From Synechococcus sp. (GTDB taxonomy: Bacteria > Cyanobacteriota > Cyanobacteriia > PCC-6307 > Cyanobiaceae), in NCBI GenBank assembly GCA_047285535.1, contig JBJBDC010000001.1:2944136-3008135 (forward strand): 64,000 bases of DNA, written 5' to 3'. The notes below the pieces were generated by a model. It had not been told where the DNA came from and ran no database searches. It saw only the letters and a program-made list of their open reading frames with translations. The position numbers and the translations under genes were made by a program. This document shows, one piece after another, positions 11,583-49,020 of the stretch (positions within the stretch are counted from its first letter, which is position 1; each line of letters begins with the position of its first letter).

Positions 11583-12363
11583 GAATGAATCAACATCTAT
11601 AGCCATCATCTCTGCTTTCGTCGATACGATCTTAGCCCCGATACTCGTTGAGTTTCGTGATGCTGAGCTGAAAGTCTGCGAATGAATCAGCATGGGCATT
11701 GAAGCAACCGAATTGCTTTTTGAGTATTAATGGATAGTCCTCAACTCAACCCTTTGACACCATTGAAACGTTCAATCGAATTCACTCTGGATTCACGTTG
11801 ATCAGGAACTTTGAGTTCAGTATTGAGATCATCGTCGCTGGGTTAATGCTGGACATAGTCTTGACGGAGAGGAGCTGTCGTCGGCATCCGAATCATTGCT
11901 GATGCAGACAGCACTCATGCCAACAACCGAGATGACATTGTTGGGTTGTCTTAGATCATATCCATCGACAAGAGGTGTGCTCCCTTTCAGGATTGGAGAT
12001 CGGGGCGCAAGGGATGCACTATGACCCCCATGACAATGACCTCTGCCAGAAGACTTAAGGATCAGAACCAAACTCATCGCAGCAGCGATCGCCTTTGGCT
12101 CTTTGGCCGCTTCAGCCACTGCCGATGAAGCCAAGAACAGGCTCTCGTTCACGAAGGTTCTGCAGAAGCAATGAAGAGTTGATTGCGCTTCCCCCAGCAC
12201 TCAAACGATCAAGGATTGTTCCGCCTCAACAACCAAATCGATCGGCGTTGAACACATCGTCCTGACCCAAGATTCTTGACCAAGCAGGGTGATGTCCTTT
12301 CTGCCTTGCGTCTGCACACCTTCTGTTTGCACACAATGTCAATAGACATTGGAAGGCCTACAG

Positions 12364-13284
12364 ATGCCCAGCCTAGAACTCGCCCACGTCATCGATCACC
12401 TTCATGGCCTGGCCGCTGATGTCAGCGCTGCCGTTGATCTCGAAGAAAATCGGCGCGTGTCAGACCGTTTCGGCGATGCGCATCCTTCGGCGCGGGACTT
12501 TGAGGCCGAGGTGCGTGAGATTCGCGTCGAAGACGTGCCCTGCGAGTGGCTGCTCGCCCCCGGCGCGGATCCGGATCGCAGGCTCCTCTACATCCATGGC
12601 GGCGGCTGGACTGCGGGCGGTCTTGATTCGCATCGCCCGCTCTCGGCGCGCCTCTCGGCTGCCACTGGCTGCGCCGTCCTTGCCGTCGCCTACCGCCTCG
12701 CTCCCGAGCACCCTTACCCGGCCGGTCTTGACGACTGTCTCCTCTGCTACGGCTGGCTTCGCGAAAACGGCCCAACCGGCGCAGGCCTGGCGCGGAGCGT
12801 GTTCGTGGCGGGTGACTCTGCTGGCGGAAATCTCACCCTCGCGCTGCTGCTCGCTCTGAAGCAGCGCGGATTGATGCTTCCGAACGCCGCGGTGCCGATC
12901 TCGCCAGCCACCGATTTCCTTGCGACGGGAGATTCCTACCGAACGCGCGCCGATCGCGACCCGATCCTCACCATGGGCCCCGATGGCATGCGCCAGGTCG
13001 CGGACGTCTACCTGCAAGGCAACGCCAAACCCGAAGATCCGCTCGTCTCACCGCTCTACGGCGACTTCGCCGGCCTTCCCCCGCTCCTCTTCCACGTTGG
13101 CGATGCCGAGGTGCTTCTTGATGACTCGACCCAAACTGCCGAGAAAGCCCGCGCCGCAGGCGTTGACGTTACGCTTCGCGTCTATCCCGACATGCCCCAC
13201 GTATGGCATGTGTTCGCTCCCTACCTCCCGGAAGCAACCCAAGCCATAGAGGAGATCGGCAGCTTCGTGAGAAAGCACGGTTGA
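12364..13284 (+). CDS. Alpha/beta hydrolase, HSL-family esterase/lipase
   Basis: HGGG oxyanion motif, YRLAPEHPYPA, GDSAGG nucleophile, C-terminal HVW; unusually high GC. Confidence 0.95.
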   Translation: MPSLELAHVIDHLHGLAADVSAAVDLEENRRVSDRFGDAHPSARDFEAEVREIRVEDVPCEWLLAPGADPDRRLLYIHGGGWTAGGLDSHRPLSARLSAATGCAVLAVAYRLAPEHPYPAGLDDCLLCYGWLRENGPTGAGLARSVFVAGDSAGGNLTLALLLALKQRGLMLPNAAVPISPATDFLATGDSYRTRADRDPILTMGPDGMRQVADVYLQGNAKPEDPLVSPLYGDFAGLPPLLFHVGDAEVLLDDSTQTAEKARAAGVDVTLRVYPDMPHVWHVFAPYLPEATQAIEEIGSFVRKHG

Positions 13285-13569
13285 GGCGAGAGCCGCCTGG
13301 AGCATCTCTGGCATCATGGTGTTGGCCGGGACCCGGAACGTCTGCCAATCCTCCCTCGTTGCTTCGCTCCAATCCTTCATGACGATGTCGATCGGGTGGC
13401 GATGGGATGTAGGGCTGCCCGTTAGCGAAGGTTTCCGTTTGTTTGTTTGGCTTGGAATTGGTGAAAGAGTGACAGGTAGTGCTCAAATCCAGGCGAGCAT
13501 CATGGAATTCTTTTTGTGTTAGAAATTGGTTTTCGTTTTCATCAATGCGTGAGGATTTGATCGTGCCAC

Positions 13570-44662: not shown

Positions 44663-45571
44663 TCATTCAACCAACCCACGTGGATTTGATTTGGGAATAG
44701 TAATCTGAACTTGAGCTCGGATTGTCCAATCCCCTAGAAGACTTTCCCCACCATCAAATTCGGGCTTAATGGCATTATAAAAGCCTTCAAGTGAAATCAA
44801 AGCCTGAGATTTGTTTGATAGATTTATCGTGCGTCCAATACCACCACCAATGGGAAGATTCCAAGCTTGGGATAAATTAAAATCAGCGCTGATAATTGGC
44901 GAGCTGATAAGATACCAATTCTTATCTAGTTGATATCGAAGGATTGGCTGCACAACAAAATTATTGATGTCTTCAAGATTAGAGCGATTGTTAACACCCC
45001 AGATTTGACGTGCTCGTAATCCTGCAGTCCAACGTCCCAATCGCTGAAAGGCCATGAATGCTGGACCAACACCGAACTGATTACTACCAACATCGTTATC
45101 AATCGAAACCGCAAATGAAGGACCAATACCAATGGCTGAAGATTGACCAGTATTGGGAACAAAGAAAAAGCTGGGATTTATAGAATCAAGACCAGATTGA
45201 TTTTTTTCATCAAAGCCTACAAGTCCGGGCTGAGCCGTAATTGGATTCAAGCCAAAAACGGGATCAGCGCTTGGCTTATTCACAAAGCGCATCACAGTAC
45301 GGGTCACCAGAGTCCAATCGTCAGAAAGCTGAAAAGGTATGACAGGCTGAAACTTCACAACTTGCAAAGACTTATTTGGCTTTGCATGCCTATCAATCAC
45401 ACGTGGAGCCCACTGTGTATTAGGAATCGTGTTCCACTCAAACCACAACCGTTTTACTTGAGTGAAAGGGTTGCCTTGCAGAGATTGGGATTGTGCAGGT
45501 AAAATGCAGAAGAAACTTACAAAAAGAGTGCTAATCAGAGCTCTAAACTCTTGTTTAAAAGAATTTTTCAT
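44663..45571 (-). CDS. Putative outer-membrane beta-barrel protein (family often mis-annotated 'neuromedin U')
   Basis: Signal peptide (LPAQS), FQPVIPFQLSDDW, alternating strands, WNLPIGGGIG, terminal WTIRAQVQITIP. Confidence 0.75.
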   Translation of the reverse strand: MKNSFKQEFRALISTLFVSFFCILPAQSQSLQGNPFTQVKRLWFEWNTIPNTQWAPRVIDRHAKPNKSLQVVKFQPVIPFQLSDDWTLVTRTVMRFVNKPSADPVFGLNPITAQPGLVGFDEKNQSGLDSINPSFFFVPNTGQSSAIGIGPSFAVSIDNDVGSNQFGVGPAFMAFQRLGRWTAGLRARQIWGVNNRSNLEDINNFVVQPILRYQLDKNWYLISSPIISADFNLSQAWNLPIGGGIGRTINLSNKSQALISLEGFYNAIKPEFDGGESLLGDWTIRAQVQITIPKSNPRGLVE

Positions 45572-46538
45572 TTGCACGTCTTGAAGCGAGAGTTTGGCGA
45601 GGAGTTTCCAAAAAATGTTGTTTATAACATCGAGCAAAGTGAGAACGGCCCACAAAGCCGAAATGAGTAGCAATATCAACGACGCCGTCAAGATTATTTT
45701 CTATACAGAATTCGGTATTAAGCAGTGCATGCCTAACTTGATGCAAACGTACAGACCTCACTACCTCGATAGGAGACATTCCAAATTTTTCCTTGCATCC
45801 ACTAAAGAGAGATGTTCTAGATTGATGGAGCAATAAAGATATGTCTTGGATTTCGAATGGTTTTCGAGGCGAATAATTTGTCATTGATACAATTTTCATA
45901 GCGGCCGCGTGCCGATCTTTTCTGTTGAGCACAGTCCCAAGCTTTCTACTGTGATTATCCTCAAAACATTCAAGCAAAATGGATACAACATTATCTTCAA
46001 TCTGTTGCTCTGTAAATGAATCTACCAAAGGATCTGAAGAAAAAAGAGCTTTAAGTATTGGCGAAAGCTTTGCGGAAACAAGTTCGCTTGAAAAGATGTT
46101 GTAATCATTAAAAAAATCTGTCAAGCCTGAACATTTGTACAGATGCAAAACAGACTTCAGATGGTCCACTGGAATCACCACAGAACACAAACACGAGTTG
46201 GCATTCATATGCAGATCAAGATCTTTCAAACACGAATTAAATCCAAATATTGCTGGTCGTGAAATACTTACACCCTGCGCAATAATCTTCGATGCACTCA
46301 CCTCAGAGCAAAGATCAACTGTGAAAGTTAGTCGATCTGGTGATCGATTGGCGTAAATTGCAATCTCCTTATTGCATTGAATGAGGGAAATACGAAGATT
46401 CGGCAAAGGCAGGACCTGAACCAATCCATGAATTGGACCTATTTCCAAAGGCAAAACGCAAGCATCTCGGAATTGCCGATTCAGGATCGAAGCAAAATCA
46501 ACAGTGCTATTGATGCAGAACGAAAGAGGCTTCAACAC
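45555..46538 (-). CDS. AraC-family transcriptional regulator (EutR-like)
   Basis: C-terminal SRTSLFSGCKEKFGMSP...IATHFGFVGRSHFARCYKQHFLETPRQT double HTH. Confidence 0.92.
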   Translation of the reverse strand: MLKPLSFCINSTVDFASILNRQFRDACVLPLEIGPIHGLVQVLPLPNLRISLIQCNKEIAIYANRSPDRLTFTVDLCSEVSASKIIAQGVSISRPAIFGFNSCLKDLDLHMNANSCLCSVVIPVDHLKSVLHLYKCSGLTDFFNDYNIFSSELVSAKLSPILKALFSSDPLVDSFTEQQIEDNVVSILLECFEDNHSRKLGTVLNRKDRHAAAMKIVSMTNYSPRKPFEIQDISLLLHQSRTSLFSGCKEKFGMSPIEVVRSVRLHQVRHALLNTEFCIENNLDGVVDIATHFGFVGRSHFARCYKQHFLETPRQTLASRRANEKFF

Positions 46539-46829: not shown

Positions 46830-47360
46830 TTATTTGTTGAATAATACTTTCCGGACATCCTTGAGCAACGACGAGAGATCTTCGTCAGATAATAGACCTG
46901 CTTGATGAAGCGTTGTGGCTAATTCGATTTTTTTGTTTGCAATAGACAATTCATAAGCTTTGTCACAATTACGAGCATTTCTAGTGTGCAGAGGAATGGT
47001 AATTGCAGCTCCAAAGGCATAACCACCTCCCAAGCCTGAAAAATTTTTACCTATTACTGAATTTTGAATCACTTCGTCTTTGCGCTCAGAAGAACCACCA
47101 TAAAGATTAAAAGTCGCTGGAGTCCCATCATGACTGGAACATCGAGTCCCATCAGGAAGGTCAACCTCAAATCGTGCGCCTTGTAAATTTTGGATTGTCA
47201 ATCCTGTCAAATCTCCCAAGGGTAATTCGTCTATCGGAGAAAATTCCACCTGCGCTTGCGCAGAATGCGTTGATAACAAGAACGCGTTAGCACAGTTAAT
47301 TGTGAGCCAGAGGATGAGGCAGAATTTTTTGGCGTGCCTTTTTCGCGGATGCAAATCCAT
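46830..47360 (-). CDS. Secreted hypothetical protein with beta-hairpin and C-terminal helices (TolC-repeat-like)
   Basis: AQA|Q signal cleavage; strands TFNLYGG and GYAFGAAITIPL; Cys pair; helix ending HQAGLLSDEDL. Confidence 0.7.
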   Translation of the reverse strand: MDLHPRKRHAKKFCLILWLTINCANAFLLSTHSAQAQVEFSPIDELPLGDLTGLTIQNLQGARFEVDLPDGTRCSSHDGTPATFNLYGGSSERKDEVIQNSVIGKNFSGLGGGYAFGAAITIPLHTRNARNCDKAYELSIANKKIELATTLHQAGLLSDEDLSSLLKDVRKVLFNK

Positions 47361-47644
47361 AATGGACCAGGTTTGAGAGAGGATGTAGGAATACTCAGCA
47401 GAACTCGCCTTGCTCGATTATCACGTAAGAAAAGTTTGGGCGGACTCACGCGTACATCTTGAATTTTCTCGCCGGGGGTATCTCTCTCTGAATTTTTAAA
47501 TGCATCAACAAGGTATTCACCTGGTTTTGAGTCCACTAAAAATGCCTGAGTACGAACAACAACCCGAGAGCCCAAGCCCGGGGTGATCACTTTATTGTTA
47601 GGGGTGAGCCCTAATGCCGCTGCAAAAAAGAGAGATGAAAGCAT
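47231..47644 (-). CDS. Small fimbrial-chaperone-like (PapD_N-like) protein
   Basis: LGLTP start of mature part; DVRVSPPKLFLRDNRARRVLLSI resembles the PapD/CsuC VSPP..L..G..Q.VR motif; LWIC...RSC Cys pair. Confidence 0.6.
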   Translation of the reverse strand: MLSSLFFAAALGLTPNNKVITPGLGSRVVVRTQAFLVDSKPGEYLVDAFKNSERDTPGEKIQDVRVSPPKLFLRDNRARRVLLSIPTSSLKPGPLWICIREKGTPKNSASSSGSQLTVLTRSCYQRILRKRRWNFLR

Positions 47645-47759
47645 TGATTGACAAGTATTTGGTAAAGGATTTATAGCGTGGGATCTCCGCGAATAGTCAA
47701 AATAAGCAGTGAAAGCTTTGCTTTGGCCTCGACAAGTTGATTCACTATTTGTTTCATGA

Positions 47760-48317
47760 CTACGAACCCAAGCTTGTCAGTACTACGTCAAATTGATATC
47801 CTACAAACGGATAAAAATTTTTCACGTTCGCTGAGACAGTCAGAGTGATGTCGTTTTGTTGCCCCACAGTGTAACTATGTGCGATCAACTTGGAACTTGG
47901 GATAGACATAGTCACATCAGGATCCTTAGTCAGCTGGTTCGATGTGACATACTGAATGTATTGATTGGTTGCCATAGAACGGACCCAGACCCCTCGAAAG
48001 CTCGCAGGATGAGGTTGTAGCACAGATTGAAGTCTTACATCTAATCGTGGGACCTTATTCGATTCAATCGATATCGGCTCAGATGTACCCATCATTCGCC
48101 CAGTTCCTCCGCTTCCACGGTGATCGTTATTGCGTGTATATGACATTTCTACATTATTGTCACAGTCACCTGTATATGAGCATGTAAACGGAACAGTGCC
48201 CGAAAATGTCGTTGTATTTTCTGCAGCTAAACCAATCTTGATCTCAAAGCACATCAGCAACAGCATTAGCAGTGTAATGCCCGTGTTTGGGGGTGAATTT
48301 GGGCTCCACGCTGTCAA
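47760..48317 (-). CDS. Fimbrial subunit-like protein (minor), paralog of 48544-49020
   Basis: Signal peptide then NTTTFSGTVPFTCSY; SEPISI; C-terminal GYQFDVVLTS. Confidence 0.7.
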   Translation of the reverse strand: MTAWSPNSPPNTGITLLMLLLMCFEIKIGLAAENTTTFSGTVPFTCSYTGDCDNNVEMSYTRNNDHRGSGGTGRMMGTSEPISIESNKVPRLDVRLQSVLQPHPASFRGVWVRSMATNQYIQYVTSNQLTKDPDVTMSIPSSKLIAHSYTVGQQNDITLTVSANVKNFYPFVGYQFDVVLTSLGS

Positions 48318-48490
48318 ATGTTCATAAGGGATGGACTCTTGCTGATGAACCTCGATCGGCTTGAGACTATAACTTGTTAACTTCTTGAAAAGCCAATAAA
48401 GAAGTTGTGTTGACCGGGTTGTTGGTTATTAGCTGTTTAATATGATCGAAATTGAGAGTCTTTGCTAAAAAATATAGGAATGATCCTGAG

Positions 48491-48541
48491 GAAAGCCACC
48501 CATTAACGATAAAATTTATTTATCGTTAATGGGTGGCTTTC
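48491..48541 (-). terminator. 23-bp perfect inverted repeat just after the major subunit gene
   Basis: GAAAGCCACCCATTAACGATAAA-ATTTA-TTTATCGTTAATGGGTGGCTTTC, begins 2 nt after the stop. Confidence 0.8.
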
Positions 48542-48543
48542 AA

Positions 48544-49020
48544 TTATGAGAAAGTAGTTGTAAGTACAACTTCGTACGAATAATTTCCGGGAATACTTGC
48601 ATCTCCAACATCTAGTGTAATAGTGACAGCGTTTGTTCCACCAGAATTGCTAAGATCTACTGTTTCTGATTCTTCTGAACCACTTTCGGTAAGTATTTGA
48701 CCAGCACTATTTTTCAAGGTTGCTAAGTTGGTCGTGGTCGTTGGATTTGAAGTTCCTGGAGTCACTGCACTCAAAGATACGTCGGCTCCTGTGTTGCAAC
48801 TAATCGAAATAGGTTGAGATACACCATTGAAACTGCCGTTGAAAGCAGCGTTGTAATCCATAGGCACAGTTTGGCTCGATCCACCTGAATAGCTGCAAGT
48901 TCCAGGAACTGTTCCTACAAATGTGGTCGTGTCATTGATCGTTGCTGCGAGAGCGGCCGCGGGAAGGAGGCCAAGTCCAATGGCTTGGATTGCCGCGATG
49001 GAAATACGTTGGAGATTCAT
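48544..49020 (-). CDS. Fimbrial subunit-like protein (major; Csu/spore-coat-U-like)
   Basis: Sec signal (AALA|A), TTTFVGTVPGTCSY...ISISCN Cys pair, C-terminal PGNYSYEVVLTTTF; S/T/G/N-rich. Confidence 0.75.
   Translation of the reverse strand: MNLQRISIAAIQAIGLGLLPAAALAATINDTTTFVGTVPGTCSYSGGSSQTVPMDYNAAFNGSFNGVSQPISISCNTGADVSLSAVTPGTSNPTTTTNLATLKNSAGQILTESGSEESETVDLSNSGGTNAVTITLDVGDASIPGNYSYEVVLTTTFS

Follow-up and report, generated by a model that had tools for sequence, protein, structure and literature searches.

The stretch analyzed here (hereafter the window) comprises 64,000 nucleotides (nt) of a Synechococcus sp. genome (GenBank assembly GCA_047285535.1, contig JBJBDC010000001.1, forward-strand positions 2,944,136 to 3,008,135). 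Its minus strand carries four co-oriented genes, which encode two small subunits, a putative single-domain chaperone and a β-hairpin protein, here called gene 4. A first-pass annotation had described these genes as a chaperone-usher-like fimbrial cassette lacking an usher, situated in a genomic island. All four open reading frames (ORFs) were confirmed. The island character was also borne out: the cassette genes have a GC content of 0.40-0.46, compared with 0.51 for the genome.

Comparison with two relatives revealed purifying selection, which supports genuine genes. The proportions of nonsynonymous and synonymous differences (pN/pS) relative to locus L011 were 0.11/0.53 for the chaperone, 0.08/0.47 for gene 4 and 0.23/0.51 for subunit 2. 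Signal peptides had been predicted for all four proteins. Judged by eye and not by a predictor, the N-termini are indeed signal-like, but that of the chaperone is doubtful, being short and devoid of a charged N-region. Searches of Pfam, PHROGs and NCBIfam yielded nothing significant for any of the four proteins, and family-wide domain scans of cassette proteins gave weak leads only. Profile matches to PDB sequences (thioredoxin, xylanase) were discarded as chance-level, and phrog_2996 matched nothing anywhere, controls included.

A conserved cassette without an usher gene

Across the order, a gene-4 profile had matches in 28 of 301 genomes, which represent 9 of 34 genera. The locus counts given here combine 30 loci from this search with one phage locus (n = 31). 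A chaperone gene was located directly upstream of gene 4 at all 31 loci, and a subunit gene was present inside the 1.5-kb flank of gene 4 at 29 of them. With S for subunit, C for chaperone and P for gene 4, the gene orders were S-C-P (22 loci), S-S-C-P (5), C-S-C-P (2) and C-P (2). One C-P locus is a second cassette of the window genome, in which the subunit genes lie farther upstream; the other is L023. This gene-neighborhood check shows that the four genes are a conserved cassette, made up of one or more subunits, a single-domain chaperone and a β-hairpin protein.

In a reverse search, a chaperone profile matched 26 of the 301 genomes, all of them among the 28 gene-4 carriers, and none of the 273 others. 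Only the absence from the 273 genomes is independent, because the profile was built from cassette chaperones. The two gene-4 genomes missed by this profile have divergent chaperones at the locus. Over 20 cassettes, chaperone and gene-4 similarities were correlated (Mantel rho 0.80, exceeded in none of 5000 permutations), although related cassettes are not independent observations.

Profiles of the usher (PF00577, PF13954 and PF16967) had no match in the window genome, which is a single contig and 99.99% complete, and the E. coli control was positive. With the same positive control, PF00577 was found in none of the 28 carrier genomes, all at least 92% complete. Genome-wide absence matters here because the Synechocystis CccS/CccP system has a remote usher. 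None of the three outcomes that the first-pass annotation had set against its own reading was observed, namely subunits lacking an incomplete Ig fold, genes not kept together in other genomes, or a cognate usher elsewhere that consistently co-occurs.

The second, divergent cassette of the window genome (C1:2085008-2088434, corresponding to L008:5009-8435; GC content 0.40) encodes two subunits and a chaperone along with a relative of gene 4; it was first detected via a weak tblastn match (E 0.27). Its second subunit, P0038, opens with a stretch resembling a chaperone N-terminus. The flanking genes are presumably dnaB-like and gidA-like. In genome G095, a window-type cassette lies between the same gene pair, which suggests that this insertion site is reused.

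The first-pass annotation had suggested that similar trios occur unannotated in other marine bacteria and in phages. Such a trio exists in cyanophage S-B68 (MK016664), where the three genes keep the order seen in the cassettes and make up the entire copy. When P0120, P0072 or the S-B68 protein was used as a tblastn query against phages, S-B68 was the sole match; P0004 and P0124 had no match, and P0003 had one chance match. Scans of viral contigs with cassette-type gene-4 queries revealed no relative apart from one spurious locus (L059). A plasmid search with one chaperone query and a genome-contig scan with P0124 gave no match, and no non-cyanobacterial locus emerged from the genome contigs. 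In a sample of the phylum, 10 of 401 genomes were matched, and full cassettes were present in this family only. The five matches outside the family were rejected, since four are unrelated membrane-fusion-like proteins and one is a Gp165-like protein without a cassette.

Several loci show additional features. Two chaperone genes flank one subunit gene at L029:1863-3311 and L031:3-1486 (C-S-C-P). At L014 (G343:C15:1369-1599), stop-containing gene-4 fragments lie just downstream of an intact copy, suggesting a decayed local duplication. In G047 (L006:3305-4981 and 11883-13498), transposase-like ORFs and a truncated gidA-like gene, recognized by eye, flank the cassette region, which is consistent with recent mobility. 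A divergently transcribed ORF of 112-114 aa was present upstream of the cassette at L005:5741-6079, L006:11027-11371, L143:783-1127 and L146:1950-2294, and none was seen in the window. It has a donor-strand-like segment and a Cys, matches the subunit profile at E ~1e-5 in L143 and L146, and could be a cap, a terminator or a decayed subunit.

Table 1. Features of the cassette and its downstream neighbors (window coordinates)
Feature	Position	Strand	Description
Subunit 1	48544-49020	-	158 aa, mature ~133 aa; Ig-like β-sandwich with free N-terminal extension (predicted)
Stem-loop	48491-48541	-	perfect, 23 bp; directly 3' of subunit 1; putative attenuator or RNA-stabilizing element
Subunit 2	47760-48317	-	185 aa from TTG 48317; alternative start ATG 48266; paralog, putative minor/tip subunit
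Chaperone	47231-47644	-	137 aa; single-domain, PapD_N-related; invariant Pro and two invariant Cys
Gene 4 (β-hairpin protein)	46830-47360	-	176 aa, mature ~140 aa; candidate oligomeric outer-membrane pore
Dual-coding overlap	47231-47360	-	130 nt; chaperone C-terminus and out-of-frame gene-4 start codon/signal peptide
AraC-family regulator	45555-46538	-	PF12833, E 1e-13; accessory, after the cassette in the window's subclade only
Barrel-like protein	44663-45691	-	~300 aa; outer-membrane β-barrel look, judged by eye; accessory

Pilin-like subunits and a half-size chaperone

The two window subunits are paralogous, as had been proposed (45% identity over 66 columns, BLASTP E 1e-9), and the motifs TTTFxGTVPxTCSYxG, S(Q/E)PISI and the terminal YxxxVVLT were confirmed in both. 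An AlphaFold2 (AF2) model of mature subunit 1 showed a β-sandwich (predicted local distance difference test, pLDDT, 81; predicted template modeling score, pTM, 0.74), in which residues 1-16 belong to no strand. This N-terminal extension has an alternating pattern. In Foldseek, pilin domains ranked first (PapG, E 8.7e-4; FimG, 3.5e-3; the CFA/I complex, 4.6e-3; FimA, 7.2e-3), with template modeling (TM) scores of 0.40-0.50. VIA-align listed the CanA cannula (Z 8.8), the Hyper2 tube (8.6), CS17 (7.9), PapG (7.8), Csu (6.8) and CupE (6.3). Although the scores are moderate, donor-strand filament proteins feature prominently in both lists. The model and these matches agree with the earlier suggestion of pilin-like subunits with a free N-terminal strand, and point to an incomplete Ig fold with an N-terminal donor extension.

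Among 30 aligned subunits (alignment A7, which includes subunit 2), Cys17 was present in all, Tyr122 and Thr129 in 29, Gly120 in 23 and the terminal Cys130 in 26. The Cys pair noticed in the first pass thus exists in the family, usually as Cys17-Cys130, but in both window subunits the terminal Cys is missing and the second Cys sits elsewhere. A specific affinity to Csu/spore-coat-U pilins found no support in the sequences: hhalign gave 1.1% against seven subunits encoded beside canonical cyanobacterial chaperones, and neither SCPU (PF05229) nor any other Pfam family matched among the 30 members. The structural matches of subunit 1 spread over several donor-strand families, with Csu and CupE no better than other pilins.

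The stem-loop downstream of subunit 1 has a predicted energy of -36.9 kcal/mol, and the longest stem found over 100 shuffles was 9 bp. Stems beyond the shuffle maximum occurred in 7 of 9 spacers between subunits 1 and 2, versus 0 of 5 other spacers. A stem-loop after the first subunit is also a feature of chaperone-usher pili, papA being the analogy. From its first position and the trailing stem-loop, subunit 1 is probably the major fiber subunit; subunit 2 may be a minor or tip subunit.

The first-pass annotation had considered the chaperone to be of the PapD_N type and of half the normal size. In line with this, the 137-aa protein aligns only with the N-terminal domain of PapD-type chaperones. 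Its VRVSPP motif is present; the first Pro of this motif is invariant in 30 of 30 cassette chaperones, as are two Cys. The chaperone ORFs of the cassettes measure 116-192 aa, compared with 222-321 aa for canonical PapD-type chaperones. Canonical cyanobacterial chaperones were taken from 14 loci, and 13 of the sequences were used for hhalign, which gave 87% (E 3.8e-6) when the cassette alignment was centered on L030. PapD_N clusters of the Atlas (137-147 aa) appeared at 0.87-0.88 for the relative P0042, a lead only. Cassette chaperones fall below the Pfam cut-off, and PF00345 is absent from the window genome. Judged from these comparisons, the protein seems to correspond to a PapD N-terminal domain, and it lacks the two-domain architecture of ~220-260 aa.

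Gene 4 and its phage relatives

Gene 4 overlaps the 3' end of the chaperone gene by 130 nt in a different frame, and its signal peptide is encoded within this overlap. The first-pass annotation had overlooked the arrangement, and the signal peptide is missing from the public gene call (P0007, 139 aa). At the overlapping loci, 25 of 26 gene-4 ATGs consist of a codon-final A followed by the TG of a chaperone Cys or Trp codon. The genomes with such an ATG overlap span 40-69% GC, with A at 7-34% of third positions, and non-overlapping chaperones have A at the matching position in 1 of 6 cases. Inside the overlap, pS in the chaperone frame drops from 0.64 to 0.29 and from 0.74 to 0.46. Together, codon usage and substitution patterns make it very likely that the upstream start, and hence the signal peptide, is genuine.

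Searching with a gene-4 profile yielded 90 representatives at E ≤ 0.001; two long repeat proteins among them were dropped, and alignment A5 contains 72 sequences including the window and locus proteins. C38, P87 and C96 are invariant in all 72. The common layout is a short hairpin, a Cys, a long amphipathic hairpin with a variable loop, an IPL motif, a Cys and two helices; the AF2 model (pLDDT 82) contains the short hairpin, the long hairpin (strands 47-60 and 72-85) and the two helices. Positions 48, 50, 82, 84, 86 and 88 are hydrophobic in 99-100% of the sequences, and 48-52 and 80-84 are without charge. In the long strands, hydrophobic residues alternate with small or polar ones. The loop varies in length, with a Cys-to-Pro distance of 29-64 residues. 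The predicted amphipathic hairpin would be long enough to span a membrane. The C-terminal helices are weakly SHOCT-like (10 of 72 at E ≤ 0.05, best 0.0015). No gene-4 relative was found within 1.5 kb of the 14 canonical two-domain chaperones.

Among Foldseek viral models, the best match of gene 4 was an unnamed 142-aa protein (E 1.6e-5), which by its length is probably the S-B68 protein, followed by proteins named Gp165 (E 1e-3). A gene-4-related family was found via L050, and one query matched 483 viral stretches. This family aligned with gene 4 in hhalign at 92.9% (E 3.6e-7, 68 columns). We refer to it as Gp165-like, a presumptive label. The two families have in common a core of Cys, hairpin, P-L, Cys and helix. 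They differ in their neighbors: none of 80 viral loci of the Gp165-like family had a chaperone match, no subunit match was better than E 0.15, and its genes adjoin small exported β-rich proteins. Because the sister family adjoins other exported proteins, gene 4 looks like a module that pairs with varied cargo. Examples of Gp165-like genes beside such proteins are L057:3959-5905, L058:3438-4240, L054:3-1953 and L050:1429-3203. The loci span T4-like and T7-like cyanophages and picocyanobacterial chromosomes, and possibly represent a second export module sharing the hairpin family.

CsgG (PF03783) was not detected in gene 4, which has no Cys at its signal cleavage site. CsgG was also rejected as the pore of the window genome, where the sole CsgG match is a broken fragment; the remnant lies at L056:1390-1986 (G000:C1 near 2309787-2310041), and the matching ORF has 69 aa.

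Proposed fiber assembly and export, and alternatives

The cassette shares with chaperone-usher pili (PapD-PapG and FimC-FimG/FimA; class 5 CFA/I, CS17 and CS20; archaic CsuA/B and CupE) an Ig-like subunit with an N-terminal extension, a PapD_N-related chaperone and the order subunit-chaperone-export gene. In contrast to these pili, it has no usher in 28 of 28 genomes, its one-domain chaperone has a Cys pair of its own, the subunit disulfide of the family usually joins the first and last strands, and a 140-residue hairpin protein occupies the slot of the usher in the gene order. The cassette would work like a chaperone-usher system and is not a member of this class, from which it is set apart by the missing usher and the missing second chaperone domain.

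Donor-strand filaments without an usher are known from archaea, namely CanA, the Hyper2 tube and the Sulfolobus 0406 filament. Their structures (9h8b, 9bac and 7pnb, respectively) are the best or near-best matches of the subunit, at 6-10% identity. Archaea lack an outer membrane that such filaments would have to pass, and no PapD-like chaperone is known for them. CsgG, MspA and haemolysin-type pores illustrate the principle of fiber export or anchoring by a barrel built from many small subunits. CsgG itself is a lipoprotein with four strands per subunit. Unlike CsgG and the oligomeric hairpin barrels, to which it has neither a sequence nor a fold match, gene 4 would contribute one hairpin.

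These comparisons lead us to the following model. The subunits, the chaperone and the gene-4 protein would cross the inner membrane by Sec, as their signal-like N-termini suggest. By homology to the N-terminal domain of PapD, the last strand of the chaperone would complete the incomplete Ig fold of a subunit. Subunits may then be chained as each inserts its free N-terminal extension into the groove of its neighbor, an exchange compatible with the modeled fold. Many gene-4 copies, each with one disulfide-clamped amphipathic hairpin, might form an outer-membrane β-barrel with a helical collar. Given its anatomy and strict linkage, this barrel could export or anchor the fiber in place of the usher. 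The trailing stem-loop may cause overproduction of subunit 1, and the overlap may couple translation of the chaperone and gene 4. The product would be an adhesive or protective surface fiber, encoded by an island that would move between genomes, sometimes by phage. We regard a chaperone-assisted donor-strand polymer assembled without an usher as likely. The entire model, with a donor-strand surface fiber exported through a ring of gene-4 protein, is favored only slightly.

Several observations weigh against it. The hhalign match of the chaperone was weak (25.5%, E 7.5e-4) when the alignment was centered on the window chaperone, with controls at 0.1-0.2%, and the signal peptide of this protein is the doubtful one. 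The TM-scores of the subunit (0.40-0.55) and its VIA Z-scores below 9 are near the level of common β-sandwiches, and the gene-4 model reached a pTM of only 0.56. No PDB pore resembles that model: Foldseek gave no match at E ≤ 0.001 and VIA matched two helices only (Z ≤ 6.8), a lack of whole-fold matches that establishes neither a new nor a different fold. Gene 4 has neither a lipobox nor a C-terminal aromatic barrel signal. Its lumen-facing residues are small and apolar instead of polar; therefore, a soluble oligomer formed by packing of the hairpin is a possible alternative. For the passage of folded subunits, a ring of about a dozen or more copies would be needed. Since the Gp165-like sister family occurs without a chaperone or pilin, the gene-4 family is not pilus-specific.

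Such considerations lend some weight to a reading in which subunit and chaperone act as proposed and gene 4 is an anchor, nucleator or base, with the polymer retained in the envelope or released through a general secretin- or TolC-type channel. The missing pore match and targeting signal, the apolar inner face and the unrelated cargo of the sister family all fit a non-conduit. However, hairpins that span membranes typically show alternating hydrophobicity, long strands without charge and a hypervariable loop, as gene 4 does, and the three-gene set is complete in the phage; we consider this reading rather unlikely. Alternatively, donor-strand subunits may assemble outside the cell into a wide, hollow tube or spine comparable to archaeal cannulae or to bacterial spinae, with gene 4 as base or exit. 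The top two VIA matches, to the Pyrodictium cannula (root mean square deviation 3.4, 127 aligned residues) and the Hyper2 tube, favor this reading. Z differences within 1 are nevertheless ties with chaperone-usher pilins, which Foldseek places first, and cannulae are not known to use a chaperone, which weighs against such a tube. The available text of PMC4390875 describes cyanobacterial spinae as genetically uncharacterized, and that of PMC3517982 reports 42 kDa for spinin, far above the cassette subunits. Overall, a hollow tube appears highly improbable.

According to the available text of PMC4390875, Synechocystis CccS/CccP (slr1667/slr1668) are a subunit and a chaperone whose proposed usher, Slr0019, is encoded remote from the operon. 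This cyanobacterial precedent, which shares with the cassette a subunit and chaperone operon without an usher, raises the possibility of an ordinary chaperone-usher system with its usher elsewhere in the genome. A very divergent usher could escape detection, and long queries miss 2-3% of weak matches. Yet CccS has an SCPU domain and CccP scores PF00345, whereas the window genome has no match to PF00345 or the usher profiles, and canonical chaperones are two-domain proteins encoded without a neighboring gene-4 relative. The absence of PF00577 from all carriers largely refutes a remote usher, and we rejected it as extremely unlikely. The same verdict applies to the neighboring barrel-like protein as the export pore. 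Its gene trails the cassette and the AraC gene in the window's subclade. However, it is present in 10 of the 28 carrier genomes and was not found in the other 18, including the single-contig G281, nor beside the second cassette or the phage copy. Of its 17 loci, 4 have the cassette and 13 do not, some of the latter on short contigs. Missing from most carriers and from the phage copy, the barrel is a most improbable pore and was dismissed.

The barrel-like protein had no significant match in Pfam, PHROGs or NCBIfam. The AraC-family regulator is syntenic in L005, L006, L142, L143, L145 and L146. Both genes are passengers of one subclade and are not required by the cassette. In Synechococcus loci L140, L141, L144 and L152-L154 they are paired without the cassette, and they may constitute a separate regulator-transporter module.

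Another non-type-IV cyanobacterial pilus is the cyanobacterial tubular (CT) pilus of Microcystis. In the available text of PMC12397347, its cluster contains glycosyl- and methyltransferases and no chaperone is listed, and the authors set its pilin apart from the Ig fold of chaperone-usher systems. On these grounds, identity with CT pili was rejected. A literature search found no description of the cassette, although subscription papers and bioRxiv supplements could mention it.

The usher, a protein of ~800 residues, is regarded as indispensable for chaperone-assisted pili because it catalyzes strand exchange and forms the channel. With a pilin and a half-size chaperone in ~1.4 kb but no usher, the conserved cassette allows a test of whether the jobs of the usher can be divided up or done by something else, and it may represent an ancestral or reduced form of the chaperone-usher pathway. 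It is also an entry point to a cyanophage gene family that is very common but unannotated. Tentatively, and with somewhat more doubt than confidence, we suggest that gene 4 belongs with the Gp165-like proteins in a superfamily, so far undescribed, of miniature pores that self-assemble for secretion across the outer membrane, with one hairpin per subunit. One branch would replace the usher in a three-gene pilus, and the other would export small β-rich proteins in many cyanophages. If true, this would be a new fiber-secretion pathway and, to our knowledge, the smallest pilus system. For the abundant picocyanobacteria, the cassette offers candidate genes for their uncharacterized surface appendages.

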